Shown here: in pieces, positions 5,007 through 21,528 of the stretch
Position numbering within the stretch: the stretch's first letter is position 1
How the letters are laid out: every line of letters starts with the position of its first letter
DNA from: an uncultured Candidatus Saccharibacteria bacterium
Lineage (GTDB): Bacteria > Patescibacteriota > Minisyncoccia > Minisyncoccales > CG1-02-41-26
DNA: 31,270 bases
Assembly: GCA_964417825.1 (NCBI GenBank)
Contig: CAYQJC010000002.1
Coordinates: forward strand, 1-31,270
Direction of reading: 5' to 3'
Made by a program: the position numbers and the translations under genes
The notes under the pieces: model-generated
The model's input: the letters and a program-made list of their open reading frames with translations, nothing else
Database searches by the model: none
What the model was told of the DNA's origin: nothing

Positions 5007-6953
5007 TCATCTTATTGGTTTAAGGTCACTTAATCCACCACATCTTCTATACCCTTCGTAAATTCCCGGGCATACTTTCTTCCGTGAGCAAAATTGGCAA
5101 CATTTCCCTTTAATCCTTTGGCCCTCGTCGGTTCTATAAAATCTGTCCTCAAAAACTTCACTCATATACAAGATATTATTTGTCTGAAGATTGTCTTTTA
5201 AATCCGGATTATCCACTAAACAATCTGACAGACCATCAAAGCCAGTTTTTATTTTTTTAGAGATAGCGCAGTGCATAGCTTCGTTTATTGCCAAAGAGGC
5301 TTCTTTAAGCGATGGGATTAATTTATTAAAATTTTTCAAAGCTTCTCCTTTTGGCTCAACCAAAGAAAATTTAATTCGATTGATTTTGAATTCTTCTACT
5401 AAATCAACGATCTTTTTTAGGTCTTTAAGATTGAGCTTCGTAACCACCACATTTACTATTAGCTCAATCTGATGGCTAGAAAGATTTTTAAGAGCTCTCA
5501 GGGTTTGATTAAAACTCCCCGGCGTTCTGGTAATAAAATCGTGCCTTTCCGGATTTGCTGAATTTAAAGTAAGATAAACATATTTTAGATTTCTTTTTAA
5601 AAGATTCTCGGAGAGTTTTCGATAACTTAATAATCTTCCATTGGTGATTAATCCCCAAGGAATCTTTCTTTGCCAGAGGGAATTAACTACTTTAGGAAAA
5701 TCTGGATGTAAAGTCGGCTCACCACCAGAAAAAAGAATCATTTCCGCTCCAATTTGTAATGCCTGATTAATTTTGTTTATTATTTGATGAAATCGAAGAG
5801 GAGGAATATTTCTCTTATCTAAAGCATGGCAAAAAAGGCAGTTATTGTTACATTGGTATTGAATTTTTATCAAGGCTTTTTTTAAATCGATTATCTTTTT
5901 CACTTTCTCACATTTTTGATAGGTAACCTTAGAACCCAAATAGAGGTATGGTCTTCTAAAATTATTTTGAGAAAAATCAATTCCTATCGCACTTGGGAAA
6001 AAAGAATATTTGTCCACAAAATTTCTTTTGAGGATTTGCCATGAATTTTTCTCTTTTTTATTTAATTTACTAAAGAATAATTTTAGCTCCTCGGTTAAAT
6101 TTCCCATACCAGTTATTTTCTGGAACTCATAAATTTTAAAAAATTTGATTGATTCCAGTTCTGAATCTTGATTAAACCGATGAAGAAGATACCAAGAACC
6201 ACTTTTCTCTTTATTTAACAAAAGCAAATTATCAATGAGATTTTTTGATGCTTTCAGGTTATTATTTTTAAAGACCCGGGAAATGAGGTTGCGGTTTAAT
6301 TTTTTATAGTGGTTATATATCTTTAGATTCTTTAGATTTTTTGGAGAAGGGAAAAAATCAATACCAATTAAATCAGAATCTGAAAAATGAGCTATCTTAG
6401 AAATTTTTTCATTATTAAACCCAAGAATCTGACACATCTTATTAATTTTTTTTATCCATTCTTGCCTTGGACAACAATGAGATAATCTCCAAAAATAAAT
6501 TTTTAATCTAGCCGGAAATTTTCCCTTAGATTGAACGAATCCAAAGGATACCTGATATTTATCCAGAGGAAAAAGTGAAAGAATTTTTTCAAGCTTATTA
6601 AAATTATCAATTTGAAATAAATCAAAAATCTTTTTTATTTTGCTGACGAACTCCTCTTTCTCCCAATATTTATCATCACCATCGATTCTGGAACATGCAA
6701 ATCTAAAGGAGGAAAAAGGATTTGGGAGAATAAATGAGAATTCAAACCATATCTGCTTTGGGAAGATGTTATCACCCTCATCGAGAAAGATATTTCTAAT
6801 TTTTTTTAGTTTGCCTAAGCTTTCTAAATGAGCTTTTCTAATTAAAAATTCCCAAGCCTCTTCCAGAACTTCTTTCTCTACTCCTTGCTTAAATTTAACT
6901 GGTTTAATAGCTTCTAATCCTCTGTAATTTTTAAAATTTTTTATAATTTTCAT
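5007..6953 (-). CDS. Two-domain protein: predicted ABBA/DMATS-type prenyltransferase-like N-terminal domain fused to an HxsC-like radical SAM domain
   Basis: The C-terminal ~290 aa carry CNNNCLFC, FSGGEPTL, ITNGR, TRTPGSF and CQFCSRKKVCPG (radical SAM, confident). The N-terminal ~345 aa show five beta-hairpin-like motifs with FEFSF..FRF, RLKIYF and LKIY (prenyltransferase call is inference). Confidence 0.7.
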   Translation of the reverse strand: MKIIKNFKNYRGLEAIKPVKFKQGVEKEVLEEAWEFLIRKAHLESLGKLKKIRNIFLDEGDNIFPKQIWFEFSFILPNPFSSFRFACSRIDGDDKYWEKEEFVSKIKKIFDLFQIDNFNKLEKILSLFPLDKYQVSFGFVQSKGKFPARLKIYFWRLSHCCPRQEWIKKINKMCQILGFNNEKISKIAHFSDSDLIGIDFFPSPKNLKNLKIYNHYKKLNRNLISRVFKNNNLKASKNLIDNLLLLNKEKSGSWYLLHRFNQDSELESIKFFKIYEFQKITGMGNLTEELKLFFSKLNKKEKNSWQILKRNFVDKYSFFPSAIGIDFSQNNFRRPYLYLGSKVTYQKCEKVKKIIDLKKALIKIQYQCNNNCLFCHALDKRNIPPLRFHQIINKINQALQIGAEMILFSGGEPTLHPDFPKVVNSLWQRKIPWGLITNGRLLSYRKLSENLLKRNLKYVYLTLNSANPERHDFITRTPGSFNQTLRALKNLSSHQIELIVNVVVTKLNLKDLKKIVDLVEEFKINRIKFSLVEPKGEALKNFNKLIPSLKEASLAINEAMHCAISKKIKTGFDGLSDCLVDNPDLKDNLQTNNILYMSEVFEDRFYRTDEGQRIKGKCCQFCSRKKVCPGIYEGYRRCGGLSDLKPIR

Positions 6954-8368
6954 TTTTTAATCGTTTTAATCGGCTTTAAAATCTTATAGCCGAAATTGCG
7001 AATATAGTTTATATGAACACCCGGACAGCTTTTAAAATATTTACATTTCCGACATCTGATACTTTTGGTATAGTACTTTTTTAAGATGAACCAATCGGTG
7101 TATTTATAAATATCAATAAAACCTCCTCTATAGATTTCAGAAATATCACTATCCTTTTCTGTAACAATCTCGCCTTTGGGATACAGACATATGGGAATGT
7201 TTTCAATCTTAAACCCTGGGAGTTTAACTTTACTAAAAAAACTTCTTAAATTTATATCATTTTTTTTAGATTGAGATAAAAGGTGGTGATTTTCTTGAAA
7301 AAAAACAATTTTATCTCGAAATCTATAAAGTTTTTTTAAATTCCTTAAAATCCAATCTTTGGTTCTTTTATTAATGGCAATCTCAAAACATCCTTTTTGA
7401 GCAAAATTAATTTTTTTTATATCATTCTCATTTTTTATTAAAGTCACAGATTTCTTTGAAAAATCTCTTTTTGTCTCTGGATGTTTAACCAAGAGCAACT
7501 GGAAACAGAAATCTTTTAAAAAACACCATTTACATCTTTCCCCCCAACAAGGCATAAGTTTATCCTCTCTTAAAAATTTGTTAAACAAACCTTCTCTTCC
7601 CTTCACCTCATCGTATAATTTCACCGGATCCTGGATTAAATCCTCAGACCCCTCAAGATAGGGAGGAGGAAATCGGTTGGTCCAAAGATGAACTCTTGAA
7701 TCATGGGAAATCTTAAAAGCTCTTTTAAGATAAGGTAAAGCGTCTTCAATTTTGTAAAAAACTTTCTTTTTGTTTTTCCAAGCATCGCCAAAAGGAATGA
7801 TTTGTAAAAGATCGAATTCATAAACTCCAAGACCCATAAAAAATTTTATAATTTCAGGAAGTCGTCGATAATTAATTTTATTTATAACAATATCTATATT
7901 CACAATCAGCCCCTTGCAACTTAAAGCATTGATTAATCCCGTCATCGCTTGAGAGAAAGAACCCTTAACTTGACTTTGAACTTCATATAATTTTTCAGTA
8001 TGACCATGAATTGAAAAAGTAATTTCATCTACCCCCCTTTCAATGGCTTTTTTAAGAAATCCTTTGTAGCTGAACATTCGGCCATTGGTAATTATCTGGA
8101 CTTTTTTGTAACCAAGTTCTTTAGTAAATTCTACTACTTCTAGAAATTGTGGATGTAAAGTCGGCTCTCCTCCCGAAAGCACCGCTCTTTCAGCTCCGTT
8201 CTTAATTCCCTCCTTTAACTTTTCTTTTATTATCTTTAAGGGAACGAAGGTTCCATCCTGAGAGGGTCTATCCAAACAAAAAATGCACCGGTTATTACAG
8301 CACCGAGTTAACCTAACCCACTGACGTCTTTCCTGGGAAGCTTTTTCTTTCTCCAATAATCTGTTCAT
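6950..8368 (-). CDS. Radical SAM protein, HxsC-like, with an extra C-terminal Cys module
   Basis: CNNRCIFC, LSGGEPTL, ITNGR; two C-terminal Cys sets, CKWCFLKDFC and IPICL...CRKCKYFKSCPG. Confidence 0.85.
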   Translation of the reverse strand: MNRLLEKEKASQERRQWVRLTRCCNNRCIFCLDRPSQDGTFVPLKIIKEKLKEGIKNGAERAVLSGGEPTLHPQFLEVVEFTKELGYKKVQIITNGRMFSYKGFLKKAIERGVDEITFSIHGHTEKLYEVQSQVKGSFSQAMTGLINALSCKGLIVNIDIVINKINYRRLPEIIKFFMGLGVYEFDLLQIIPFGDAWKNKKKVFYKIEDALPYLKRAFKISHDSRVHLWTNRFPPPYLEGSEDLIQDPVKLYDEVKGREGLFNKFLREDKLMPCWGERCKWCFLKDFCFQLLLVKHPETKRDFSKKSVTLIKNENDIKKINFAQKGCFEIAINKRTKDWILRNLKKLYRFRDKIVFFQENHHLLSQSKKNDINLRSFFSKVKLPGFKIENIPICLYPKGEIVTEKDSDISEIYRGGFIDIYKYTDWFILKKYYTKSIRCRKCKYFKSCPGVHINYIRNFGYKILKPIKTIKK

Positions 8369-8380
8369 GATAAGATAAAA

Positions 8381-9271
8381 TTATTTAACCGGCTTAAACT
8401 CCTCCCAGCCAAAATGTTCTGGATATTCTCGCCAAGGTCCTTCGCAAATTTTAAAATATTTACACCTCTTGCAACTTTCCGCTTTGGTTTTACCTTCCTC
8501 TTTTCTCGCTTTAGTGAAATTAATTATTTGATCTCGCTCAAATACTGTAGTATCTGGTATAATTTTCTCAGCAATATAATCTTCATAGCCTTTCATAAAA
8601 CAGAGGGGAATGGCTTCAGTCATTACTCTCTTGCCGGCTTTTCGTCCAATATCTAACCCTTCTTTCACGAAGGGTTCAACTAAGCTTTTTCTTGGAACAA
8701 TTGAATCAAAATTTTCTTCTGCCCTGCCCAAAGCATGAGGGAAGGCAAATTGAAACTGATCTACTCCAAGTTTCACCAGAAGCTTTGCAATCTCGGGAAG
8801 ATGTCGATAGTTAGACTTAGTAATAACAGTATTGGTTACTACCGCAACTCCCAGTAATTTGAGATTTTTTATCCCTCTCACTGTTTGGGAAAAACTTCCT
8901 TTAACGGTCGTTAAATAATCATGAAGTTGAGGAATATGCCCGTGTAAAGCAGGTGAAAATTCGTTGGCTCCAGCTAAAATTGTTTTTTTGCAAAATTCTT
9001 TGTAAGCGAACATCCTGCCATTAGTTTGGATTTGGATAATCTTAAATTTTAGATTACTAGCATATCTTACTAATTCTAAAAAATCTTTTCTTATTGTCGG
9101 TTCTCCACCAGTGAAGACTACTCCCTGACAATTTTCTTTTTTTGCCTTCCTTAGGGCTTCTTTAACTTCCTGGGTAGTTTTATCGGGATAAATCTCTCTT
9201 TTGTTACCTTGAACGCAAAAACGACATCTATTATTACAAGAAAACCCCACTTTTATATCTGCTCTTTTCAT
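8381..9271 (-). CDS. Radical SAM protein, HxsC-like paralog
   Basis: CNNRCRFC, FTGGEPTI, QTNGR, IPLC...CKRCKYFKICEG; first gene after precursor 9406-9660. Confidence 0.85.
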   Translation of the reverse strand: MKRADIKVGFSCNNRCRFCVQGNKREIYPDKTTQEVKEALRKAKKENCQGVVFTGGEPTIRKDFLELVRYASNLKFKIIQIQTNGRMFAYKEFCKKTILAGANEFSPALHGHIPQLHDYLTTVKGSFSQTVRGIKNLKLLGVAVVTNTVITKSNYRHLPEIAKLLVKLGVDQFQFAFPHALGRAEENFDSIVPRKSLVEPFVKEGLDIGRKAGKRVMTEAIPLCFMKGYEDYIAEKIIPDTTVFERDQIINFTKARKEEGKTKAESCKRCKYFKICEGPWREYPEHFGWEEFKPVK

Positions 9272-9405: not shown

Positions 9406-9660
9406 TTACCAATTTCCATGGGAACCATGGGAACCATGGGAACCATGAGAACCATGGGAAGTATGAGAAGCATGACGTCCTCGAGCTCCTGAGTTGTGAA
9501 AATAATTGCTGTGTCCAGCGTGAGTAATAGTTGCATCTAAAGCGATCCCAATTACAGCTAAAGCAGCTCCAATTTTAGCAATACTTTTTTTACTTATTTT
9601 CCCCTCTTCGGAGTTAAGAAAAGTTCTAAGATTTTTTTTGATTTTTGGAATTTTCTTCAT
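9406..9660 (-). CDS. hxsA: His-Xaa-Ser repeat precursor peptide 1 (HxsA-like)
   Basis: 84 aa: basic leader, FLNSEEGKISKK, hydrophobic stretch, THA-G, then HNS...HAS HTS HGS HGS HGS HGS HGN W; located in a cluster with HxsB and HxsD. Confidence 0.85.
   Translation of the reverse strand: MKKIPKIKKNLRTFLNSEEGKISKKSIAKIGAALAVIGIALDATITHAGHSNYFHNSGARGRHASHTSHGSHGSHGSHGSHGNW
9416..9460. repeat. Five tandem 9-bp units (ccatgggaa x3, ccatgagaa, ccatgggaa) encoding Ser-His-Gly repeats
   Basis: Read directly from the sequence; in frame within hxsA1. Confidence 0.95.
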
Positions 9661-9681: not shown

Positions 9682-10641
9682 TTATTTTCCCCAGAGAATT
9701 TGTTCATATATTTTTGTTTTCATATCACAATACTTCTCTTTTAATGCTTTCCCATAGAGATTTTGGCAAGTTTTTCCTTCATAAAATAACCCTCTAACCT
9801 GTTTAACAAATTCTACCTCTTGGTGAGATCGATTAAGAATTTTCGACCTTTCTTGAAATTTCTCAGCAGCTTTTTCTCCATTAGGCAGAAGAGACTGAAA
9901 ATAGTAAACTATCATCTCGCAATTATTTTTCTCATCTTTCTCTAATTTTTTGCATAAGTTTAGATCATCCAAAGCTAAGGCTTCACAAGAAGTTTGAAAA
10001 GATGGATTATTCTCTATTTTCGAGCAAAATTGAGCATCTTCCTTAGATAAGACCTCAAGAGCAATCTCGCAGTACTCCTTGCTGCCTCCCATATATTTTG
10101 ATACCTGTTCTTCTTCACAGATACTAATATCGGGGGATCTATTTTCAATTATAGGTAAGATAACTTTATAATAAATAAAATAATTCCGCTGACAAGTATC
10201 GTAACTTACTTTTGCCTCCTCCCCTTTCGCCCCTTCAACAACTTCTCCACTTTCTCTGGTTATCTCTTCAGGACCCATCTCAAAAAATCTATCACATTCT
10301 GCTAAATTTTCATGTTCAAGAGCTAAACAAAATATGAAATCTCTGGACAGTCTCTTTACCTCCCATTCTCCAAACTCCCCCATCTCTTCTCCGGGAAGAG
10401 TCACTGGTTCTATTGCCCAAGCTTCCAACAAAGGCTGAGGAGTCTTCAAACAAGTTTCTTTAAATTTTTCAACTTTCATATCAATCTCCTCTCTTTGAGA
10501 AACAGAAATTTCTTCTCCGGGCTTTCCTTTTTTCTTCCAAAATTCTGCTATTTCTTCTTTTTGAAGAAATACGAACAAAGAAGCTTGGAAAACTACTATC
10601 GCGATTAAAATCCAAATAATAATTTTTATCTTTTTCTCCAC
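9682..10641 (-). CDS. Cys-rich, N-terminally membrane-anchored protein (paralog family member 1)
   Basis: N-terminal TM IIIWILIAIVVFQASLFVFL, 12 Cys in short helical repeats, C-terminal KEKYC; ends 21 nt before hxsA1. Confidence 0.8.
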   Translation of the reverse strand: MEKKIKIIIWILIAIVVFQASLFVFLQKEEIAEFWKKKGKPGEEISVSQREEIDMKVEKFKETCLKTPQPLLEAWAIEPVTLPGEEMGEFGEWEVKRLSRDFIFCLALEHENLAECDRFFEMGPEEITRESGEVVEGAKGEEAKVSYDTCQRNYFIYYKVILPIIENRSPDISICEEEQVSKYMGGSKEYCEIALEVLSKEDAQFCSKIENNPSFQTSCEALALDDLNLCKKLEKDEKNNCEMIVYYFQSLLPNGEKAAEKFQERSKILNRSHQEVEFVKQVRGLFYEGKTCQNLYGKALKEKYCDMKTKIYEQILWGK

Positions 10642-10708: not shown

Positions 10709-11857
10709 TTAACGGAAAATAGCTAAAATAATGCTCAAAATGGAATTTTGGGTAACTAAAGTAATAATAAACCCCAAAAATAAAAAAGGAGAAAATGGGA
10801 AAGTACGATAAATTTTTAATTTCTTTTCCGGTTCCTGACCCCAGATCTTCCTAATGAAATTTACCTGATCCTCAGTTAGTCCCTCAGAGAAAAAAGACCC
10901 TATTTTAGCTTCTATTTCTTTTTTTGTTTTTAATTGCATCTTTTTCAAGAGTTCTCTTAAAGTTGTTTGAGAAAGAATCATCTGAGGTCGGAGCTCTTTT
11001 AATTTTATTTCTCTGGTTTCTTTCTTTTCAATGTAAAAATCTAATATCTGACGAAGCAAGTTTATAATGACCATAAAAAATAAAGCAGTTTTAAGAATAT
11101 TAAAAAGAACTCCTAATTGAGAAGTGCTCACTAAGTACCCACTGTAAACCAAAGAGCCAATTCCTAATCCTAAAACAACTTTTTTCTTTTTACCTAAAAT
11201 TCTAAAAATAACTCTATAAGAGAAAAAGATAACAAAGAAAATTAAAACTGGATTTGAAATAACAGAGCTGAGCTGCTGAGAAACCTGGGCCCTTGCTAAA
11301 TGTAAAATAATAAATATCGAAATAAACCCTACAAAAGTACCGGCTATCTTCTTGACTTTCGGTTTAATCTCAATAAATAGTTTTTTCAAAGAACTAAAAT
11401 TAATTTTGGTCTTTTTTATCTTTAAAATTTCTTTTATCCCTATTACTGAACCTTGAATCACCAAAAGAATAAGTAAAGGAAAAAAGGTATTAACTAAGAG
11501 ACAAAAAGAAGGAAAATAAGGTAGATAACTTTTTGAATAAAATTTTAAAGGCAAAAGCAAAGCATATAAAGTGAAAAGTTTAGCATCACCAGCTGACCAG
11601 AGATTAAAATACCAAATCCCATAACCTACCAAAAAGGCAATTCCTCCATTTAATAAAAGGTTTAGTAAATAGCGATCATTCTCCGGCTCATGAAGATAAA
11701 AAAGATTGTAAAGAAATAGTCCGAGATAAAGAAAAATCGCCCACATTAAACCAAAAAGAATCCACTTATTTTTAATTTTCCCATACCTAATATCAGTGAA
11801 ACAACAAATACCACCAACAATAAAAAGAGGGGTTAAGAATAAAAAATCAATAATCAT
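10709..11857 (-). CDS. A24-family prepilin/preflagellin-type aspartic peptidase with an extended membrane region
   Basis: Catalytic-type motifs TDIRYGKIKN and SAGDAKL, many TM segments, KELRPQMIL and C-terminal FPFSPFLFLG. Confidence 0.8.
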   Translation of the reverse strand: MIIDFLFLTPLFIVGGICCFTDIRYGKIKNKWILFGLMWAIFLYLGLFLYNLFYLHEPENDRYLLNLLLNGGIAFLVGYGIWYFNLWSAGDAKLFTLYALLLPLKFYSKSYLPYFPSFCLLVNTFFPLLILLVIQGSVIGIKEILKIKKTKINFSSLKKLFIEIKPKVKKIAGTFVGFISIFIILHLARAQVSQQLSSVISNPVLIFFVIFFSYRVIFRILGKKKKVVLGLGIGSLVYSGYLVSTSQLGVLFNILKTALFFMVIINLLRQILDFYIEKKETREIKLKELRPQMILSQTTLRELLKKMQLKTKKEIEAKIGSFFSEGLTEDQVNFIRKIWGQEPEKKLKIYRTFPFSPFLFLGFIITLVTQNSILSIILAIFR

Positions 11858-11998: not shown

Positions 11999-12241
11999 TT
12001 GAAAGAAAGATTTTATAGATTAAATGTAGGTTGGGAGACAATTGTTTTAGCTCTCCTGGTCATTATAGCTCTAAGCGGAACTCAGCGAATAACCACTTCA
12101 CCGAATAAGAGTTTCGTAACCCAGATCCCAAATTTTCTCCAACCACCAACCCGAGAAGAAATTAGAAAAACGGAGAGGATCAGAATAAGGATCGACGTAA
12201 GCCGAAATATTTGTTTGGCAAACCTCTTCGTTATTGGTTAA
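11999..12241 (+). CDS. Small hydrophobic hypothetical protein, probably a truncated membrane or secreted protein
   Basis: Strong SD 6 nt before TTG, upstream promoter, hydrophobic IVLALLVIIAL. The 3' part is antisense to the conserved portion of the 12098-12524 pseudogene. Confidence 0.5.
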   Translation: MKERFYRLNVGWETIVLALLVIIALSGTQRITTSPNKSFVTQIPNFLQPPTREEIRKTERIRIRIDVSRNICLANLFVIG

Positions 12242-12524
12242 AGCGGCTTGACATCCCAGGTAACCAATAAACCGATTGAGCAGTTCATCATCCAAAATAT
12301 TTGCGAAAGAACCGTCTTGAAGAATTCTATCCGAATCGAAATTCTCCAAGCAATATTCTTTTCTTCTTTCAACTGCTTTCTGGAGAAACTTTTGAATTTC
12401 CAAAGATATTTTAGAAGGAATTTCTTCTTTTTTCTCAAGATAACTTTTTCCAAGAAATATAAATTAAAAACAAGAACGATGAGTAAAGCTATCGTTAAGA
12501 TTAGAATTTTTTTCTCTTTTCCAT
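12098..12524 (-). pseudogene. Frameshifted and truncated Cys-rich membrane-anchored paralog (family member 2)
   Basis: ATG at 12522-12524. One added base at T7 12507-12513 and at T6 12428-12433 gives MEKRKKILILTIALLIVLVFNLYFL...VERRKEYCLENFD...YLGCQAALTNNEEVC, matching VEKRKEYCYNNFN...YITCKAV of 18011-18841. Similarity is lost after about 12200. Confidence 0.75.
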
Positions 12525-12558: not shown

Positions 12559-13356
12559 TTAATCCCTTCCCCAAACCTTGCGATGACAATATTTTGTTTT
12601 AAACTTCTCAAATTTTTCTTGACAAAAAGAAGTTGGGTTTTCCCTAAAGAATAACTGGCAATACATTTTAATATGAGGGTGTTCTATTTGGTTACATTTT
12701 GATTCTTCATTATCAATTAGGGCTTTGTAATACCGAGCTTGACTCTGGCAATACATTCTTTTTTCTTGAGAGTTATAAAAATTACAATATTTTTCATCCC
12801 CAGATAGCATAGCTAAACACCAGGCTTTAAAATCTTCATCTCCCCCTTCACTGCAGCGATAAAAGTCCCTTTCTAAGATTGCCAGACAAAATTTCTGGCA
12901 CCAAGCTTCCAGAGCTGGGTCTCCAGAATTACTAATTGCTTTTTTACACGCTTCAATTTCTCCTGCTTCACATTTTTTGTTTTTAATTATTCTTCCCAAG
13001 AAATTGGGAAAGAGATAAAATAATCTCTGACAATTTTTAGCAATATCAGGAGAAATATTTTTTAATAAGTTGCACTGAAAGGGATTTTGCTTTATAGCTG
13101 CTTGACATTCTAGGTATTGGATTAAATTTTCCATTGACTCTTGGCTATAGTAAATTACCCCTTCTCGAATCACCTGATTAAAATCAAACCTCTCTAGACA
13201 CTCTTTTTCTTTTTTCTCCAAAACCACCTGAAGTTCGGGTGAAATAGTTGGAGTGACTTCTTCTTTTTCTTTTGGTCGTCGAAGAACAATTAATGTAATG
13301 TTTAATATTACACCAATTGCTATTAGAGAGAGTATAATAATCAGTTTTTTGTTCAT
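12559..13356 (-). CDS. Cys-rich, N-terminally membrane-anchored protein (family member 3)
   Basis: TM LIIILSLIAIGVILNITLIVL, 16 Cys, KEKECLERFDFN, YLECQAA, C-terminal KTKYC. Confidence 0.8.
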   Translation of the reverse strand: MNKKLIIILSLIAIGVILNITLIVLRRPKEKEEVTPTISPELQVVLEKKEKECLERFDFNQVIREGVIYYSQESMENLIQYLECQAAIKQNPFQCNLLKNISPDIAKNCQRLFYLFPNFLGRIIKNKKCEAGEIEACKKAISNSGDPALEAWCQKFCLAILERDFYRCSEGGDEDFKAWCLAMLSGDEKYCNFYNSQEKRMYCQSQARYYKALIDNEESKCNQIEHPHIKMYCQLFFRENPTSFCQEKFEKFKTKYCHRKVWGRD

Positions 13357-13669: not shown

Positions 13670-14182
13670 ATGAAAAGGATCTTGATTGCAATCTTGGTAG
13701 CTCTACTAGGAATAGGGCTTGCTACTCCTGCTTTCAGTAATACTCTATCTCTACAGGAGATGATTACTGTAAAAGAGATCCAATATCCTTATTACTCAGT
13801 GAGCTGGAGGAAAGAGACCTTATTCAGAGAATTAACTTTCTCTTTCTGCCCAGAAGCAGTGAGGTATCAAAGACAAGGTACTCAACTCTATATCATTTTA
13901 GGCACTTTCTCCACTCAAGTGGCAATAGAAGAAGCACCAAGGGAATTAACTCTCAAACCCAAAAAGATAATGGTGGATGTAACTCTAATTCTGAAATTGA
14001 GATTCGGAAGAGAAGAAGATTTAGAGAATTTCCTGGAAGCTCTGAAAGAAATAACTCAAAAGGAACTAAGAGGAAAAGTTGTATGCAAAGCCTACCCGGA
14101 AGTGAAAGTAGATATTGCCCGAGTATTCAGAACCAACTTACAGTACTTTGCTACAGGAATTCTTTACCTTAAAGGACTCTGA
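13670..14182 (+). CDS. Secreted hypothetical protein
   Basis: 170 aa with signal peptide MKRILIAILVALLGIGLATPAFS, strong SD, own promoter and terminator. Confidence 0.8.
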   Translation: MKRILIAILVALLGIGLATPAFSNTLSLQEMITVKEIQYPYYSVSWRKETLFRELTFSFCPEAVRYQRQGTQLYIILGTFSTQVAIEEAPRELTLKPKKIMVDVTLILKLRFGREEDLENFLEALKEITQKELRGKVVCKAYPEVKVDIARVFRTNLQYFATGILYLKGL

Positions 14183-14186
14183 AACT

Positions 14187-14225
14187 AAAAAACCCGTCTA
14201 TGCTTTCCCAAGCTAGACGGGTTTT
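14187..14225. terminator. Bidirectional intrinsic terminator
   Basis: aaaacccgtcta...gctt-tccc-aagc...tagacgggtttt: a 12-bp outer stem with A/T tracts on both sides, between convergent genes. Confidence 0.85.
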
Positions 14226-14294
14226 GATATATGAATTAGGTAAAACTTAAAGAGATTAAAAAAAATTTCTTCAACTAACTTAAAATCCCTCAGC

Positions 14295-14843
14295 TCAATT
14301 TTTAGAGCCAGAGGGCTTTTTATTTGATTTTTTCTTTTTCTCTTCTTCTTCCAACTTTTCAAGCGCCTTTAAATAATGGCGGCTTAATTCAAAAGCTGGA
14401 GGTGAAAATTTTTGGATTTGTTCCATCCGTTTTTGGAAAATTTTCAAGATTCTAATGGTATCAATAACACTAAGATGATAGTCGATAAATCTCCGAATGG
14501 CAAATATTGTCTCTCGTATCTCTATTTGTCTACCAACTTCCTCATTCCAAGCAGAAGCAAGAATAATAAATTCATTAACTAAATCTTTAAGAATCGGGGT
14601 GAGGGGTTGCTCAATGACAATTCTTAATAAAAGATTTAATATTTGTTTTATTTGGCTTTTTTCTTCTTCATTAACCCTAACTTTTCTTTTTTTTCGTTTT
14701 TCTTTCAATTGTCCGCCCATTAGCTCAACAGTTTTCTTGACTAAATCTAATTTCTCTTGGGTGAGAACGGAGTAAATCTGAATATGGCCCAAAATCTCCT
14801 TTAGTTTTTTAATATTTGGTTGATAAATAATTTTATTCTTCAT
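14295..14843 (-). CDS. Hypothetical helical protein coupled to the radical SAM pair
   Basis: 182 aa; start overlaps the upstream radical SAM stop by 11 nt; FSPPAFELSRHYL segment; no recognised family. Confidence 0.7.
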   Translation of the reverse strand: MKNKIIYQPNIKKLKEILGHIQIYSVLTQEKLDLVKKTVELMGGQLKEKRKKRKVRVNEEEKSQIKQILNLLLRIVIEQPLTPILKDLVNEFIILASAWNEEVGRQIEIRETIFAIRRFIDYHLSVIDTIRILKIFQKRMEQIQKFSPPAFELSRHYLKALEKLEEEEKKKKSNKKPSGSKN

Positions 14844-16161
14844 TAATAAATTCTTCTAGTAGATTTAGAGAAACCTTTTTATCTTTATTTAATTTCTCAA
14901 AAATTCTATCATAGATTCCTAATCTCTTATATGTTTTTATCATAGTTAAAATTTTAGCATGTTCAAGTTGGCAAACGGTGGGAATAGGTGAAAATAAATC
15001 TCCGGTTGTTTCGTATTGAGCCCCGAGACATCCCCCAGAACACAAATACTTTAAAGGGCAACTTTCACATATCGGAGCGGTTTTAATATCGAAGGTAATT
15101 GAGCCTATAAGTAATTCTGGGTTCTTACTTTCTATGCCGATAATTCTGCCATTTTTAACAATAAACCTTCCCAATTCAAATGGGGAATAAGATGTCCTAT
15201 GGCAAGGAATAAATGTTAAATCGCCTAATCTTAAATGAAAAGTGGATTGAAGAGAACAGCCTATTCCCCTACCAACAGTTGTTAAGGGAGAATGTAAAAT
15301 GTTATAACCTTTCTTATTGAATACGAAGTCGAGGAAATTGCCTTTGTTTTTTTGGCAAGGAAAATAGTAAGTCCATTCAATCAGAAACTCTATAAATCTC
15401 ATAAACTCTTTAATCTGTTTTTTTGACCACTCAACATTTCTGACTTCTAGTAAATAAATATTAAAAAAGGGAATGTTAAATTTTTTAAAGTTTTTTTGAA
15501 ACCAAAGAAAATTTTTCTGCCAATTCTCAATAAGTACAGAATAAATCATTGGATGGAATCCATAACAATACTTTTTATTAAAAGCGAAAACTCTCTCATA
15601 ATATTCATTATTCCGTTTTTCTTTTCCTGTCTTAAATGGTCTGTTTTTCTCACAATATTTTCCATCAAAGGAAGCTGATAAAATAATAGGCATTTCTAAT
15701 TCTCTTGAAGCTTGGATAAGTTCCTCAACCCGCTTAGTTTTTTCTGGCGAAAGCAGAAAGGTGTAATTGGTAGGAATAACAATGCTCTTTGGCCGATTTT
15801 TTACTGATTTAAACTTATTCAAAATTAGCTCTAAAGCCTTAAATCCTAGTTCCTGCGAGAAAGGTTCACCCCCAAAAATCTCAATTTTTGGATAATATCC
15901 CTTCCGAATAAGCCAGTCTAAAAACAGCGAGAGATTTCTTAAAAGAATTTTTGGGCTTTGAATTTCTATTGGATAAAGTTCTTCACCATAATTAGCCACA
16001 TAACAATATTTGCATTTTAAATTACAAGAAGTATTTAAGAAAATCTCTAACTGTTCAAAGTTAACCAAATCTTCCTTCCAACCCTTGAAAAAAGTGTGGT
16101 TTAAAAATGAATTTACTAATTTGTTATTTTCTTTTTGATAAAGTTTTATTTTTTCTGCCAT
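14833..16161 (-). CDS. Radical SAM/SPASM peptide maturase (non-HxsB/C type)
   Basis: CNLKCKYC, FGGEPF, SPASM-type GIGC..PCHRT..CESCPLKYLCSGGC..VC. Confidence 0.85.
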   Translation of the reverse strand: MAEKIKLYQKENNKLVNSFLNHTFFKGWKEDLVNFEQLEIFLNTSCNLKCKYCYVANYGEELYPIEIQSPKILLRNLSLFLDWLIRKGYYPKIEIFGGEPFSQELGFKALELILNKFKSVKNRPKSIVIPTNYTFLLSPEKTKRVEELIQASRELEMPIILSASFDGKYCEKNRPFKTGKEKRNNEYYERVFAFNKKYCYGFHPMIYSVLIENWQKNFLWFQKNFKKFNIPFFNIYLLEVRNVEWSKKQIKEFMRFIEFLIEWTYYFPCQKNKGNFLDFVFNKKGYNILHSPLTTVGRGIGCSLQSTFHLRLGDLTFIPCHRTSYSPFELGRFIVKNGRIIGIESKNPELLIGSITFDIKTAPICESCPLKYLCSGGCLGAQYETTGDLFSPIPTVCQLEHAKILTMIKTYKRLGIYDRIFEKLNKDKKVSLNLLEEFINEE

Positions 16162-17519
16162 TCTATATATTCTTTTAAAATTTCTTCAAAAGCACCGTTA
16201 GCAAAAAGTCTTATCATTGAGATGGGAGAAAAATGAATAACTCCAGTATTTAAGACATTTTCTGTAGGACATCCAAGGGCTAGATTTAAAAAAATAGCAA
16301 ATAAAATTGCCAAATCTTCATCTAAATAGCATTCGCTTGCTTGACCAACTAAAACAAGCTCCTGAAGCATTGCTAATGTGTAGCTGATTTTTAATCTAGT
16401 AAAATCGTGGTAGTTTCGCCCTACATAAAAAAGTCTTATTTTTTCTTCTAGTTTATTTATATCTACTATAAACTTATTTTTAATTAAATCTAAATTTCCT
16501 TTTTCAAACAAACTTACATCCCAATTTTTTATTTCTTCATTTTTTAAAATACTCTCAATGTACTCTTGATTATTTAAAAAGAAAGAGCGATGGCAAATAT
16601 GCAAATCATTGTCTATTCCCACTCCAAAATTACTATCTCCTCCGCTACAGGTGAACATATAAGGTTTGATAAATAACTCATTCTGATAGTCAAATAATCT
16701 CTTTAGGCGATAAACATAGGTATTTAAAGAACTTTTGACATACTTCCAATGTTGATTTTTTTTATTTTGCTTTCCTAAAATCCTTAAATTTCTAAAGAAA
16801 ATTGCTAATTCTTTCCCGTCAACTGAGGTATATTTCCCAGGGCAAACTAAAGTTGGAGTACAACTAGTTAGCAAACTTACTTTTTGATTTTTGTTCTTTC
16901 TTTTAAATTCTTGGAAAATTTTCTCAAAGAAATCGAAATATTTTCTTAATCTTTCCTTTTTCTTATTCAAGATCTTAATATTGTCAATTGATAAAGTTGG
17001 CTTTAGCGAAAATCTAACATTTAGATTGGTTAAGTTTATGGTATTTAATTTGCTGATTAAATAAAAAAAATTTTCAGTTATTTTTTTTGTTGCTCCAGGA
17101 CCTCTATTGATATCGGTAATAAAATCAGGACCATCTATGGAAATTTGGACTTTAAGATTAATTTTTTTCCTGGTTTTGGTTAAGGCTTTGATAAAATTCA
17201 AAATAATCTCCGGGTTGGTCAAGAGATTGGTCGAAAAAGAGATTCCCACCAGCTTAGGGAAAGTTTTGAAAAGAAAAGATAAAGATTTTTGAATTTTTTT
17301 TAGGGTTAATGTCGGTTCGGTCCCCCAGAATCCTAAATATTGAAGATTCTGACCGTAAGCTCTTTTTAAGGTATCGAGATACTCTCTCTGGTCAAGGTTA
17401 GTTATTATCTTATCTTGGAGAAATCCCATCTGGGAAGTTTTTGGGATATAACAATACTTACAGTTTAAAGGACAGGTAGCTGAAGAGAATAACTCTGTTG
17501 AAACCATTCTTTTGTTCAT
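16146..17519 (-). CDS. Radical SAM peptide maturase with a reduced SPASM/Twitch-like tail (non-HxsB/C type)
   Basis: CPLNCKYC, WGTEPTL, SIDGP, FTCSGG..HICHRS..LGCP; first gene after precursor 2. Confidence 0.85.
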   Translation of the reverse strand: MNKRMVSTELFSSATCPLNCKYCYIPKTSQMGFLQDKIITNLDQREYLDTLKRAYGQNLQYLGFWGTEPTLTLKKIQKSLSFLFKTFPKLVGISFSTNLLTNPEIILNFIKALTKTRKKINLKVQISIDGPDFITDINRGPGATKKITENFFYLISKLNTINLTNLNVRFSLKPTLSIDNIKILNKKKERLRKYFDFFEKIFQEFKRKNKNQKVSLLTSCTPTLVCPGKYTSVDGKELAIFFRNLRILGKQNKKNQHWKYVKSSLNTYVYRLKRLFDYQNELFIKPYMFTCSGGDSNFGVGIDNDLHICHRSFFLNNQEYIESILKNEEIKNWDVSLFEKGNLDLIKNKFIVDINKLEEKIRLFYVGRNYHDFTRLKISYTLAMLQELVLVGQASECYLDEDLAILFAIFLNLALGCPTENVLNTGVIHFSPISMIRLFANGAFEEILKEYIEWQKK

Positions 17520-17560
17520 CGTTTTAGTTTTTCGATTAGCATTAACAATCTTCAGGGTTA

Positions 17561-17995
17561 TTAAGCAAGCAGATTGAGATTTGTATAATCGTCAGTATAA
17601 TTGGTACTAAGAGCAACTGTTTTTTCAGCAGACTTATCACTCAGACAGTGTCCACCTAAATCATCGCTGAAATATATTGAATTATCGGCAGACTTATCGG
17701 CAGAACATCCACCATTATCGTGAGACCCATGAGAACCATGGGAGCCATGGGAATTGTGGGAACTGTGATTACTGTGAGAACCGTGGTCTCCTCTGGCTCC
17801 TGAGTTGTGGAAGGCGCTTGAGTGGGGGGTGGAACTTGAATGGCCAGCCCAGATATTCTTGGCTCCAAAAATAGTAGCCAAGAGAGTTAAACCTAGTCCA
17901 AGCTTGAGGGCATTCTTTTTACTAATCTTTCCTTCTTCTGAAGAGAGGAAAGATTTAAGATTCTTTTTGATTTTGGGGAGGTTTTTCTTTTTCAT
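17561..17995 (-). CDS. hxsA: His-Xaa-Ser repeat precursor peptide 2 with an acidic Cys-containing C-terminal extension
   Basis: Same leader as hxsA1 (PKIKKNLKSFLSSEEGKISKK), IWA-G, HSS..HSS..HNS GARGD HGS HSN HSS HNS HGS HGS HGS HDN, then GGCSADKSAD...GGHCLSDKSAE. Confidence 0.85.
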   Translation of the reverse strand: MKKKNLPKIKKNLKSFLSSEEGKISKKNALKLGLGLTLLATIFGAKNIWAGHSSSTPHSSAFHNSGARGDHGSHSNHSSHNSHGSHGSHGSHDNGGCSADKSADNSIYFSDDLGGHCLSDKSAEKTVALSTNYTDDYTNLNLLA

Positions 17996-18010
17996 ATTTT
18001 GAGTACTAAA

Positions 18011-18841
18011 TTAAAAACCAGCCCATTGGTGACAATAATTATCTCTAATTAATTTTAACCTATTTTCGCAAAGTATTTTCGGATTAGAAATAAAATATAA
18101 GTTACAAATTGTTTTAAGAGAAGGGTTTTTTATTGTCTCACAATTCTCTTCCTTTTTACTACCAAGGGCGAAGAAATATTGCCAAATATCAAGGCATTTA
18201 TCTTTAGTTGACTGGTCTAAAAAATTATCACAATATTTTTTCTCTTTAGATATTACAACCTGACACAAAAAATAGAGAGGCTTTCCTTTTTCAGTCAAAG
18301 GGAAAAGCTGGGAACAGATATTAGTATCTTCTTGAAGATAGGCTCGACAGAAATTTCTGCAATGTTCCTCAGTAATCTTTTCATTAAGGGAATCCTCCTC
18401 CTTTCTCCCCACAAACTCTACACAACTCTGAATGGCTCGATTATTACACTCGCCTTTTTTCTCTACTTCTTCAAAAAAATTATAAGTATAAAAACACCTC
18501 TCACATCCTAGAAAATATTTTGAACCATATAATTGCTCACAAACTTTTATCTCCCTTTCTTGCACTGCTTTACAGGTAATATATTCTGCAAATAAATTGT
18601 TTAATTTATTGCTTAATTCAGTTGGTAAAAGGTGCTTTTTTAACTCCCGGTTTATTACCTCGTTTAAATTAAAATTATTATAACAATATTCTTTTCTCTT
18701 CTCAACCACCTCTAAGGGGACCTCGAAAGAAATCTTTTCTTGTTTTTCCTTCCTTTCTTTTATCATCAGAAAGTACACTATTAAAATCGAACTACCAATC
18801 AGTATTATGAGAATAATTGTAGTTTTTATCGTTTTTTTCAT
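18011..18841 (-). CDS. Cys-rich, N-terminally membrane-anchored protein (family member 4)
   Basis: Likely start is the second Met (18841; the ORF track start 18865 overlaps hxsB). TM IILIILIGSSILIVYFL, 17 Cys, C-terminal RDNYC; ends 15 nt before hxsA2. Confidence 0.8.
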   Translation of the reverse strand: MKKTIKTTIILIILIGSSILIVYFLMIKERKEKQEKISFEVPLEVVEKRKEYCYNNFNLNEVINRELKKHLLPTELSNKLNNLFAEYITCKAVQEREIKVCEQLYGSKYFLGCERCFYTYNFFEEVEKKGECNNRAIQSCVEFVGRKEEDSLNEKITEEHCRNFCRAYLQEDTNICSQLFPLTEKGKPLYFLCQVVISKEKKYCDNFLDQSTKDKCLDIWQYFFALGSKKEENCETIKNPSLKTICNLYFISNPKILCENRLKLIRDNYCHQWAGF

Positions 18842-18846
18842 ATTAT

Positions 18847-20274
18847 CTATCCAGCCCCTAACCACTTATCAAATACCTTTTTTATCTTTTTGTTTTGTAG
18901 TCTCTGAAAGAGGTAATCTAACATTCCTTTGTTTAATCTACACCTATCGTTATTGGGCAAAGAAGCAAAAAGGTTGCCATAAAGAGCATAATTTAGAACT
19001 GGACAGACCCCGCAGTAGGGTTTGTAACAGCAATAGTCACAAGGAAGGTTATCAAGACAAGAAGCTATACAAGCTGCTTTCACAGCATCATGAGAAACTA
19101 TTTCTTGATAACTATTTCTCTTCACATTGCCAATCTTAAATACATCATCTTCCAACATCCTTCCCTCATCGCAAGTAAAAACATCTCCATTGTAATTATA
19201 GGAGAGCTGGCCAATGCCTGCTCCACAGGGAGAACGCAGATCCAGATAACCTGGGTCTTGGTCAGTCAAAATTTTACGAAGCATAACCACCGCTCCCCTC
19301 TCAGAAATTTTTTTCTTTTTAAAATTTAATTCAATGATATAATCCATTGCTTCTCTCCAGAATCTTAAGAATTCCTCAGTTGAGTAACCAATTTTATCTT
19401 TAAGTTTCCCTGAAAGTCCTAAATAACTGAGGGGTCTTAAATGAATAGTTGAAAAACCCCACTTTAGGTATTCATCGATAATTTCTTTGGGGTATTTCAA
19501 TGAATAGCGAGATATAGTTAAAAGAGCATTAACTCGGTTTAATTTTGGATGTTCTTTTCGATAATTATTTATTCTCTTAACCCAGTAGACAGTTTTTTCA
19601 TAGCTATTTCCTCCGATAAGAATTCTGTTTTTGTTGTGAAGTTTTTCTGGGCCGTCTAAAGAAGTACAAAGCCCTACTCTGTTTTTAAAAAGAAATTTTA
19701 ATTTTTTCTCATCCAAAAGTGAAAAATTAGAAACTAGGGTAATCCATAAATCCTTTTCTCTCTTTTTATTTTTTTCTCTAGCATACTCAACAATAAACTT
19801 AACAGTTGGCCAATTAACTAAAGGCTCTCCTCCCTGAAATTCAATAGTTATATTTTTGTTTGGACTACAAAATATCGTATCTACCACCTTGCGAGCAGTT
19901 GGAATATCCATATCATAGCCCTTCTCTTCTAAACTCCGCGAGCTGACCTGACAATAGATGCATTTATGATTACATCTTAGAGTGACCACGACAATGTGTA
20001 AGCTTGGCCCTTGGGCTAAGAAGGCATTTCGAGAACGATATTTTTCTATTAAATTATCAAAGTCTAAGTAGTCTCTGATAAATTCTCTAGATTCCATTTT
20101 CTTGTAGAGTTCTGTCTTTTTGTCTAAGTTTCCTTCCAAAAATCTTATAAACGATTTCTCAGTTAAAAAAATATACTCACCAATGTCATTGGTAAGTAAA
20201 TATTTCCTCCCAAATTTTTTGAACCGGCAAAATCCTATTTTATCTAAGTTAATTTTATCTAAATCAATGTTCAT
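18847..20274 (-). CDS. hxsB: His-Xaa-Ser system radical SAM/SPASM maturase HxsB
   Basis: N-terminal KYLLTNDIGEYIFL region, PSLHIVVVTLRCNHKCIYCQ, IEFQGGEPL, SPCGAGIGQLSYNYNGDVFTCDEGRM, CDYCCYKPYCGVCP; HxS peptide and HxsD neighbours. Confidence 0.85.
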   Translation of the reverse strand: MNIDLDKINLDKIGFCRFKKFGRKYLLTNDIGEYIFLTEKSFIRFLEGNLDKKTELYKKMESREFIRDYLDFDNLIEKYRSRNAFLAQGPSLHIVVVTLRCNHKCIYCQVSSRSLEEKGYDMDIPTARKVVDTIFCSPNKNITIEFQGGEPLVNWPTVKFIVEYAREKNKKREKDLWITLVSNFSLLDEKKLKFLFKNRVGLCTSLDGPEKLHNKNRILIGGNSYEKTVYWVKRINNYRKEHPKLNRVNALLTISRYSLKYPKEIIDEYLKWGFSTIHLRPLSYLGLSGKLKDKIGYSTEEFLRFWREAMDYIIELNFKKKKISERGAVVMLRKILTDQDPGYLDLRSPCGAGIGQLSYNYNGDVFTCDEGRMLEDDVFKIGNVKRNSYQEIVSHDAVKAACIASCLDNLPCDYCCYKPYCGVCPVLNYALYGNLFASLPNNDRCRLNKGMLDYLFQRLQNKKIKKVFDKWLGAG

Positions 20275-20470
20275 TTTTCATTTCGGCTAAAACATAATTA
20301 GAAAATTCGTCCTTTATTATATTTTTAACATCTTTATCTATTTTACTAAGCTCTACTTTTATTTTATTCTTTTCCTCTTTAGTTCCAAACTTAGCCAAAT
20401 TCTTATAGGCCTTGATCGCTTTTTTTACAGCACTGAGTTTGTAAAATCCCTTATTAAAAACAATAGTCAT
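20264..20470 (-). CDS. Short HxsD-like protein
   Basis: 68 aa, FNKGFYKLSAVKKAIKAY...DEFSNYVL, parallel to INPQLYPLEAIYGASYVF...REFLNEIL in 20506-20958; overlaps the hxsB start. Confidence 0.65.
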   Translation of the reverse strand: MTIVFNKGFYKLSAVKKAIKAYKNLAKFGTKEEKNKIKVELSKIDKDVKNIIKDEFSNYVLAEMKNEH

Positions 20471-20505
20471 AGATTCTTAAGAAATAATTTCTGAGTTTTA
20501 ATCTT

Positions 20506-20958
20506 TCATTTTGACTTTTTAGTTTTGACTTTTGATTTTTTACCGTACTTCTCTTCCCAGGGAATAGCAATTCCTAAAGGGTCTTTCTCCCAATCTTCCT
20601 CTGTCCTTCCTTGTTCCAATTCTTCTTGACCTATGGCGGCCAGAAGTGCTTGACCTACAATATATTCTCTAATTTTTTGATTGTGTTTTGAGATTTTCTC
20701 TCTTAGGGTATAATTCAAAATTTCATTTAAAAACTCTCTTGCTAACTCCTCCAATTTCTTTTTGGTCATTTTCTCCTTACCTTTAATAAAAACTTTCACC
20801 TCTTTTTTAGGATTTCCATCCAAAAACAAATAAGCTCGGTCAATGAAAACATAACTTGCTCCATAGATTGCTTCTAAGGGATAGAGTTGAGGGTTGATTT
20901 TAACAGTAATTCTGTTTTCTTTTTTATTAAGTTTAAAATTTACTTTTTTATGACTCAT
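20506..20958 (-). CDS. hxsD: His-Xaa-Ser system protein HxsD
   Basis: EFLNEILNYTLREKI..IREYIVGQAL resembles the HxsD LLNDYxLRE signature; located upstream of hxsB. Confidence 0.75.
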   Translation of the reverse strand: MSHKKVNFKLNKKENRITVKINPQLYPLEAIYGASYVFIDRAYLFLDGNPKKEVKVFIKGKEKMTKKKLEELAREFLNEILNYTLREKISKHNQKIREYIVGQALLAAIGQEELEQGRTEEDWEKDPLGIAIPWEEKYGKKSKVKTKKSK

Positions 20959-20985
20959 TATTATCTCTATTATCGATTGTCAATC

Positions 20986-21528
20986 TTACAGTGGATTATC
21001 GACCTTGCAACAAAGCATATAGCCGGTGGCTGTTCTGCCTTTAGCATCAAAAGCCACATAAGTACCAGCGGGGCAATAAGTAGTTCCTGAACTTCCATAA
21101 TAAACCAAGTGGCAAGTATTTGAATTACCGTTCACTCTGAGATTACCATGGACGTCTAAACTACTTCCAATACTGGCTTTTGGCCAATCTCCTCCATAAT
21201 TGAATCTTAGATCAGAACCTAAGTCTACTATAGCTCTACCCGGGCTTCCTCTTCTTTCACTATATCCTATTTTAAAATCTGCACAGCCAATAGAGGCGGT
21301 ATGATTATCACCTACAGTTAATCCGCCGGCAGTAAAATGACCTTGGACAGTTAAGGCTCCGCTTTTTGTTTGTGCAGTTGGTCCAACATTAATTGGTGCA
21401 TCACATCCAGGATAACCACTCGGGCAAGAAGGAGGAGGGCCTGGAGCATCAGTAAAAGCAAAGATAAAGTAAGTTAAAGTAAAACTTAAAATAATGACAC
21501 TTATTAAAAGGGAGAGTTTTTTAGACAT
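20986..21528 (-). CDS. Secreted CPR-type surface (possibly pilus-associated) protein
   Basis: Signal peptide, then FTDAPGPPP...APINVGPTAQTKSGAL, C-terminal CPAGTYV..LCC. Confidence 0.7.
   Translation of the reverse strand: MSKKLSLLISVIILSFTLTYFIFAFTDAPGPPPSCPSGYPGCDAPINVGPTAQTKSGALTVQGHFTAGGLTVGDNHTASIGCADFKIGYSERRGSPGRAIVDLGSDLRFNYGGDWPKASIGSSLDVHGNLRVNGNSNTCHLVYYGSSGTTYCPAGTYVAFDAKGRTATGYMLCCKVDNPL

Follow-up and report, generated by a model that had tools for sequence, protein, structure and literature searches.

Precursor 2 joins an HxsA-type protein to an additional C-terminal tail

The gene at 17561-17995 in a 31,270-nucleotide (nt) stretch of DNA from an uncultured Candidatus Saccharibacteria bacterium (contig CAYQJC010000002.1; this whole stretch is called the window) encodes a peptide, precursor 2, that is probably a natural fusion of the target regions of two radical S-adenosylmethionine (SAM) systems. 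We place the probability of this reading, which derives from sequence comparison, at about 0.7. The front of the protein is of the HxsA3/A4 type and carries an array of His-Xaa-Ser (HxS) units, and its C-terminal tail resembles the substrates of a second system, a module of two radical SAM enzymes (rS457 and rS442) and a small helical protein (p182), encoded immediately downstream. The original prediction had proposed that one peptide carries cores for two maturase systems, making a hybrid RiPP (a peptide made on the ribosome and modified after translation); a shared motif, a shared period and the co-occurrence of tail and module now lend support to that proposal.

The front of precursor 2 has the layout of the NCBIfam families HxsA3 (NF038309; 55.6 bits, cut-off 65) and HxsA4 (NF038313; 51.1 bits, cut-off 55), both of which align with residues 6-93: a PKIKK...FLxSEEGKISKK motif, a hydrophobic helix and the HxS array, an arrangement found likewise in 91 relatives. 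The Lys-rich motif at residues 1-28 is presumably where the Hxs enzymes recognize the protein, and a spacer separates the helix from the array, in which residue identity is 0.40 at lag 3 and 0.46 at lag 6. No match to TIGR03979 and no Pfam domain were found in the protein, which is not of the peptidoglycan-binding HxsA type. The open reading frame (ORF) is uninterrupted and, as had been predicted, runs far past the array: after ...HGSHGSHGS the chain continues for 53 residues (HDNGGCSADKSADNSIYFSDDLGGHCLSDKSAEKTVALSTNYTDDYTNLNLLA) before the stop codon, and precursor 1, a tail-less paralogue encoded in the same window, stops at HGNW. The two precursors align through the end of the array and no further.

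The tail contains a diverged internal duplication, whose description in the original prediction proved accurate. A distance of exactly 20 codons separates Cys97 from Cys117; the DNA word gcagacttatc, found at 17628 and again at 17688, extends to 17 nt with 88% identity at a 60-nt spacing; and the aromatic-acidic motifs YFSDD and YTDDY correspond to residues 108-112 and 133-137, respectively. Compared with itself, the tail yields an ungapped BLOSUM62 score of 39 at offset 20, a value reached by 3 of 5000 residue shuffles, and the gapped alignment of its two halves scores 40, reached by none of 2000. The duplication is more than chance, and its 20 residues amount to five units of four residues. 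Cleavage at the GG preceding each Cys, in the manner of double-glycine leaders, was considered and not adopted, the window being without C39 peptidase or transporter.

An identical precursor 2 is found in four other assemblies, whose contigs are 99.98-100% identical in nucleotide sequence and belong to the same strain, which confirms the sequence and carries no information on selection. Contigs L002 and L003, from two independent assemblies, both stop 12 nt past the precursor 2 stop codon, at ~17549. These ends fall exactly where the Hxs part gives way to the rS457 module and could represent strain-level variation at that junction.

The rS457-rS442-p182 module has its own precursors

The module is contiguous (14295-17519), with 41 nt between the stop codon of precursor 2 and the start of rS457. 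A scan of 14000-21200 for promoters and terminators returned sites that were not above those in shuffled sequences, and no terminator behind precursor 2. The rS457 family contains an invariant CX3CX2C motif and three further invariant cysteines. Its profile gives weak matches to anSME (4k37) and ChlB (9gm3), and the enzyme itself is weakly similar to YhhB, GrrM/OscB, AmcB, XyeB and ChlB, over the N-terminal radical SAM core only and far below the cut-offs. rS442 has the full SPASM Cys signature; its best family matches are PapB (54.3 bits, cut-off 340), QhpD and the SCIFF maturase (35.1 bits, cut-off 425), all far below the cut-off, as is AlbA (16.3 bits, cut-off 850), and CteB (5wgg) is matched at E=4e-9. 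No Pfam or NCBIfam family matches p182, for which a single-sequence AlphaFold2 model shows an all-helical bundle with a predicted local distance difference test (pLDDT) value of 76.7. A role as a PqqD-like recognition element was considered for p182 and set aside, since with no family and no informative fold match it is not recognizable as such.

The surroundings of rS457 homologues were retrieved for 105 loci, and the following counts refer to the 104 with a detectable homologue. rS442 adjoins rS457 in 92 of these loci and p182 is present in 60, but HxsB is found in only 11; judging by these neighborhoods, the triad is therefore a self-standing module. Its roughly 100 loci belong to bacteria of the Candidate Phyla Radiation (CPR), Omnitrophota, DPANN and other archaea, and are mostly without Hxs genes.

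Upstream of the module there are 65 distinct stand-alone precursors, with one or two in most loci, and none of them matched a curated family. They begin with a leader, M-A-F-S-W-T-E-D-I...E-I-R-x-N-V-D-x-V-D-D-x-K-C, in which the Cys is nearly invariant, and the junction between leader and core reads K followed by C-x-[AT]-[HDY]-[KDNY]-[SVT]-[GS]. The original prediction had suggested a search for the CxxDKSA-type repeat near homologues of the genes at 14833 (rS442) and 16146 (rS457), and this gave a positive result. The cores are rich in D, N, S, T, G and Y and are built on a four-residue repeat, [Y/H/D]-[D/N]-[S/T]-[G/S/T], with an identity of 0.17-0.22 at lags 4, 8 and 12 versus 0.03-0.08 elsewhere. 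With the junction Cys as origin, the frequency of Ser/Thr in the four phases is 0.01/0.45/0.36/0.01; Asp and Asn dominate phase 0, Gly is common at phase 2, and aromatic residues and His make up 50% of phase 3, the aromatic position being frequently occupied by Val, Asp or Glu. Most of these cores contain almost no Cys besides that of the junction.

In stand-alone precursors with long leaders from Thermoplasmata and a Nanohalarchaeota genome (L096 4093-4464, L098 1144-1551, L101 220-651 and L102 1367-1684), His takes the place of the junction Cys (NKH, NRH, SRH or NMH). This hints at a junction position that serves as a ligand or cross-link donor and that could be filled by either residue.

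Both the module and its stand-alone precursors appear to be uncurated and undescribed. A literature search returned nothing on HxsA3/A4 or on the triad, the sole relevant paper being that on the Escherichia coli HXS system (Li et al., Nat Commun 2026, PMC13128918).

The tail matches the substrates of the module

A junction matrix was built from the stand-alone precursors only, whose own scores range from 7 to 30.5 bits. The segment of the tail starting at Cys97 (CSADKSADNSIY) scores 14.0 bits and ranks first when all 12-mers anchored on a Cys are taken from the six reading frames of the window (n=578), the runner-up scoring 4.8 bits. This score is reached by 7 of 20000 shuffled tails, and none of the other HxsA-like proteins (n=91) exceeds 2.3 bits. 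The tail also follows the period-4 register of the stand-alone cores, its Ser/Thr residues being distributed as 0/9/2/0 over the four phases from Cys97, and the register goes on for ~45 residues past the junction motif. Nine of the 11 Ser/Thr fall in one phase along the tail, a concentration not attained in any of 20000 shuffles, and the combined identity at lags 4 and 8 gives p=0.006. In composition, too, the tail resembles the stand-alone cores. It therefore matches the substrates of the module in three independent ways: motif, register and composition.

Tails accompany the module in other genomes

The HxsA-like ORFs located 18-233 nt upstream of an rS457 homologue, together with one at 1394 nt, all carry Cys/Asp-rich tails, of 19-163 residues, and the long ones among them have period 4 too. 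Junction-like motifs occur in the hybrid tails of locus L006 (CSSEKSGD) and locus L009 (CTGDKNVE and CEWDKVGD). The leader model of the stand-alone precursors finds matches in 66 loci, none of them hybrid. Of 78 loci in which the upstream sequence extends for 700 nt or more, a stand-alone precursor is present in 59 and a hybrid in 12, and the two never occur together. Four long Hxs loci without such a tail contain HxsD, HxsB and HxsC-like genes and lack rS457 and p182; the HxsA-like proteins of three of them are tail-less, and that of L111 has a 13-residue Cys tail of another type.

In a neighbor-joining tree of rS457, the window and the other hybrids form one clade, ~48-61% identical to the window enzyme and sister to stand-alone loci, a divergence that points to an old and retained fusion. 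Hybrid L105 is placed elsewhere in the tree, and the fusion of HxsA with a tail may have arisen more than once. The hybrids themselves take several forms. The array is followed by a short Cys tail in L016, L019 and L105, and by a small period-4 core in the window and L006. In L009 (93-641) and L085 (9309-9959), the HxsA-type N-terminus and helix lead straight onto a long period-4 core with no HxS array, although L085 keeps HxsD, HxsD-like and HxsB. These two look like leader swapping and not like a fusion of two cores.

These forms bear on a different function for the tail, that of a docking "follower" which would recruit rS457 and rS442 to modify the HxS array, in replacement of the HxsC absent from this half of the locus. 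Such a role would suit the gene order, since no HxsC-like gene adjoins precursor 2 and the pair fills the slot taken by HxsC-like genes in L114 and L116. It would also suit the stand-alone precursors, whose matching motif is situated at the leader/core junction, an expected place for recognition elements. The module is nevertheless found mostly with precursors that have no HxS array, L009 and L085 join an HxsA-type leader to long period-4 cores in its absence, and the register of the tail persists long after the motif. We consider docking quite improbable.

The tail could also be a functional extension of HxsA that the pair leaves untouched, such as an acidic metal-binding or surface segment, or one in which HxsB or the HxsC-like enzymes act on the Cys residues, as they may also do on the W, Y or C ends of other members of the family. 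The tails of the 91 HxsA relatives have a median length of 4 residues, and 31 of the 91 contain Cys in such short tails, most of the others ending in W or Y; moreover, short Cys tails of other kinds exist with no module nearby (L110, L111 and L113). What this explanation leaves unaccounted for is the specific match of motif and register to the substrates of the module, and the absence of the module's own precursor from the hybrid loci. It seems unlikely to us.

Regarding the Cys-rich tails of these other kinds, they read CACACxxPC…GGGM, SSSTCGESTKCVH and HYSCVECCKLLF (L110 3170-3592 and 8146-8580; L111 6794-7150; L113 5802-6191) and are accompanied by additional radical SAM genes other than the rS457 module. 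HxsA may thus be a scaffold to which C-terminal additions of more than one kind can be attached.

Several observations weigh against a fusion of two target regions. The second unit of the tail is weak on the junction motif (4.4 bits, fourth of 578), and the hidden Markov model of the stand-alone leader finds nothing in the window, so that the tail is without the leader of its presumed relatives; neither rS457 nor rS442 has room for an N-terminal recognition domain. The hybrid tails of L016, L019, L105 and L017 are Cys/Asp-rich and too short for period 4, and the Cys tails of the module-free loci mentioned above point the same way. The family matches of the enzymes lie far below the curated cut-offs, and the model of p182 has no informative fold match in the PDB (best E=0.33). 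The only other copies of the gene come from the same strain and hence provide no substitution data. Finally, the search with the whole of precursor 2 gave the 91 relatives, none aligned beyond 67% of the query and none over the tail, and the tail alone found no homologue in a word-indexed search of 5.8 billion proteins and no credible homologue in an exhaustive phmmer search of 1.84 billion representatives. Two phmmer matches to giant repeat proteins, in which many weak stretches are summed, were judged spurious. The support for the fusion consequently comes from motif, periodicity, composition and gene context, and not from alignable conservation.

This want of homologues, and the fact that precursor 1 ends at the equivalent point, would fit a tail that is merely unselected read-through following the loss of a stop codon in an HxsA4-type gene. 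Such an origin is hard to reconcile with the significant internal duplication, with the strict four-residue phase of Ser/Thr and the junction motif, and with the presence of tails in all module-adjacent relatives. A stop-loss origin from a gene like that of precursor 1 was rejected, because no alignment with the tail was obtained for the DNA following precursor 1. We regard read-through as very improbable.

A possible route of maturation

If precursor 2 is a fusion of two target regions, its front, consisting of the Lys-rich motif, the helix and the HxS array, would be an HxsA3/A4-type substrate of the Hxs enzymes, namely HxsB and HxsD encoded upstream and the HxsC-like enzymes encoded further downstream. 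The 53-residue tail would be a shortened and duplicated copy of the core that is normally found on the module's own leader-bearing precursor. In this lineage the module would have lost its own precursor gene, the substrate region having moved to the C-terminus of HxsA, and a single translation product would be modified in the cytoplasm by both sets of enzymes. The triad would handle the tail, as there is no other candidate substrate in this clade. An HxsA-type N-terminus stands in place of the stand-alone leader in precursor 2, and the junction motif itself may be the recognition handle for the module enzymes.

The chemistry of the module is a guess, because the family matches of its enzymes all fall far below the curated cut-offs. 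Since rS442 is closest to PapB, QhpD, the SCIFF maturase and CteB, our leading guess is that it would link Cys97 and Cys117 to the nearby acidic residues (D100/D104 and D120/E124, respectively), as enzymes of the PapB, QhpD and CteB types do. rS457 would act on the repeat units (Y/F-x-S/T), and the product might then be exported or anchored in the membrane through the N-terminal helix. The wider proposal, that the triad and the precursors with four-residue repeats constitute an undescribed class of peptides or proteins modified by radical SAM enzymes, spread widely through CPR bacteria, Omnitrophota, DPANN and other archaea, whose core was grafted in one clade onto the HxsA of a phage-defense relative to give one exported product matured by two sets of enzymes, seems to us evenly poised.

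The Hxs part of the locus

The coordinates of the features are collected in Table 1.

Table 1. Parts of precursor 2 and neighboring genes in the window
Feature	Position	Strand	Basis or remarks
Hybrid precursor gene (precursor 2), HxsA3/A4-like with C-terminal tail	17561..17995	-	144 residues and stop; ORF list, translation verified
N-terminal Lys-rich motif, residues 1-28, PKIKKNLKSFLSSEEGKISKK	17912..17995	-	kept in 91 relatives; within HxsA3/A4 profiles
Hydrophobic helix, 18 residues, 29-46, ALKLGLGLTLLATIFGAK	17858..17911	-	read from sequence; common to all relatives
HxS array with nine units at period 3, residues 52-91	17723..17842	-	regular-expression count
C-terminal tail, residues 92-144, period-4 Ser/Thr mini-core	17564..17722	-	beyond HxsA3/A4 profiles
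Tail unit 1, residues 95-113, GGCSADKSADNSIYFSDDL, Cys97 in junction-type motif	17657..17713	-	junction-matrix score
Tail unit 2, residues 114-137, GGHCLSDKSAEKTVALSTNYTDDY, Cys117, diverged duplicate of unit 1	17585..17656	-	repeat statistics; junction-matrix score
rS457, radical SAM enzyme, 457 residues, first module gene	16146..17519	-	>200 homologues, up to 58% identity
rS442, radical SAM/SPASM enzyme, 442 residues, second module gene	14833..16161	-	TIGR04085, 28.1 bits, cut-off 27
p182, helical protein, 182 residues, third module gene	14295..14843	-	homologue counts in text
Cys-rich N-terminally anchored protein, 284 residues, between HxsB and precursor 2	18011..18865	-	no family assigned
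HxsB, radical SAM/SPASM maturase	18847..20274	-	TIGR03978, 514 bits, cut-off 370
HxsD-like small protein	20264..20470	-	NF038315, 70.1 bits, cut-off 41
HxsD	20506..20958	-	TIGR03976, 64.2 bits, cut-off 50
Precursor 1, tail-less paralogue, 84 residues, HxsA4 member, ends ...HGSHGSHGNW	9406..9660	-	NF038313, 61.2 bits, cut-off 55
First of five HxsC-like radical SAM genes	8381..9271	-	best matches HxsC4 and HxsC, below cut-offs
Other HxsC-like radical SAM genes	6950-8368, 5007-6953, 1974-2906, 1056-1970	-	

HxsB, HxsD and HxsD-like, all above their cut-offs, lie within 3 kb upstream of precursor 2. The Cys-rich protein encoded between HxsB and precursor 2 has weak homologues in L114 and L116, where their genes likewise separate HxsB from HxsA. 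It is one of three Cys-rich, N-terminally anchored paralogues (9682-10641, 12559-13356 and 18011-18865, all on the reverse strand, with a fragment at 12098-12403, also reverse), each of which adjoins a precursor or sits between two clusters and none of which belongs to a Pfam or NCBIfam family. The gene just upstream of HxsD (20986-21528, reverse strand) encodes a protein of 180 residues that has a hydrophobic segment at its N-terminus and contains several Cys. No family was assigned to this protein, and six related loci, L019, L020 and L105 among them, have a homologue in the corresponding place.

The five HxsC-like genes come after the tail-less precursor 1. Within the window, HxsC itself (TIGR03977) is matched at 108.6 at best (cut-off 267.9), by a gene 9 kb away, and no such gene adjoins HxsB. 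The HxsC-like gene at 5007-6953 carries a fused N-terminal domain that is also found as small genes at 3384-3887 and 3022-3354, and a DUF6580 gene (3924-4532) and a DUF4430 gene (4536-4829) lie among the HxsC-like genes. In other organisms, long tail-less HxsA4 loci are organized as HxsD, HxsD-like, HxsB, a protein of ~250 residues, HxsA and a run of HxsC-like genes; in other HxsA4 loci, up to about ten radical SAM genes stand in a row. PADLOC (2023 version, which has no HXS models) reported only generic radical SAM similarity to viperins.

The gene at 10709-11857 (reverse strand) encodes a polytopic membrane protein of 382 residues that matches the Pfam family of type IV leader peptidases, A24, near the threshold (24.3 bits, cut-off 26.5; E=4.4e-5), and its homologues adjoin Hxs genes in L006, L007, L009, L017, L085, L111 and L117. 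HxsA3/A4 proteins have Lys-rich N-termini, with K-x-G preceding the hydrophobic helix, that are similar to prepilin-type signal peptides, and the membrane protein may be the peptidase that does the processing.

Significance and comparison with known systems

If the tail is modified by the pair, precursor 2 would be a natural protein with two cores, each served by its own radical SAM machinery, an arrangement that peptide engineers attempt with chimeric leaders. It would represent a natural "plug-in" architecture for post-translational modification, and it raises a question of recognition, since the leader of the second system has been lost and its enzymes would need another route to their substrate. 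Tailed and tail-less precursors in one genome offer a built-in control. Apart from the fusion, the analysis brings to light a conserved and uncurated triad with four-residue-repeat substrates in poorly studied lineages with small genomes, tied to relatives of HXS.

HXS (HxsA/B/C/D; TIGR03976-03979), carried by E. coli and other Pseudomonadota, is an antiphage system, and that phylum is reported to contain 99.7% of HXS systems (Li et al., Nat Commun 2026, PMC13128918). In E. coli, HxsB and HxsC mature HxsA, with N-terminal processing and a change of +8 Da in the last repeat, and the mature protein is a periplasmic effector that blocks the entry of phage DNA (PMC13128918). The window shares with the canonical system HxsB and HxsD above the cut-offs, a substrate with tandem His-Xaa-Ser units and a gene order starting HxsD-(HxsD-like)-HxsB. 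Unlike that system, it has a small substrate of the HxsA3/A4 type, in which a hydrophobic helix and nine repeats are followed by the added tail; none of its genes scores above the HxsC cut-off, and it encodes five HxsC-like paralogues as well as an additional module of two enzymes. Whereas HXS is found mainly in Pseudomonadota, the related loci found in this analysis are from genomes of CPR, Omnitrophota and the DPANN type. Judged by its gene content, the Hxs system of the window is a distant variant of canonical HXS. With the HxsA3 and HxsA4 models of NCBIfam the N-terminal motif, helix and array align, and precursor 2 adds the 53 residues that extend past them.

Compared with the thioether-forming enzymes PapB, CteB and QhpD, rS442 has a similar SPASM signature, although its scores are far below the cut-offs. 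The tail units pair Cys with a nearby Asp or Glu, an arrangement that we liken to the CxxxD sites in substrates of PapB; the spacing in the tail is, however, CxxD, and the tail has only two Cys. The cyclophane (triceptide) maturases XyeB, GrrM/OscB, YhhB and ChlB are weakly similar to rS457, in the N-terminal core only. An aromatic-x-Ser/Thr pattern recurs in the stand-alone cores (Y-D/N-S/T), and the tail has YFS, but the repeat is of four residues instead of three.

The kinds of components assembled here, Hxs proteins and radical SAM/SPASM maturases, are known, and their tandem two-core arrangement appears to be undescribed. A parallel is leader sharing among RiPPs, in which NHLP and Nif11 leaders serve different classes of maturase and for which engineered chimeric leaders exist. 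Both cases involve one precursor scaffold and more than one maturase system. In leader sharing, however, one core is combined with different enzymes, or concatenated leaders are designed, whereas precursor 2 would carry two types of core in tandem on a natural protein from which the leader of the second system has been lost.

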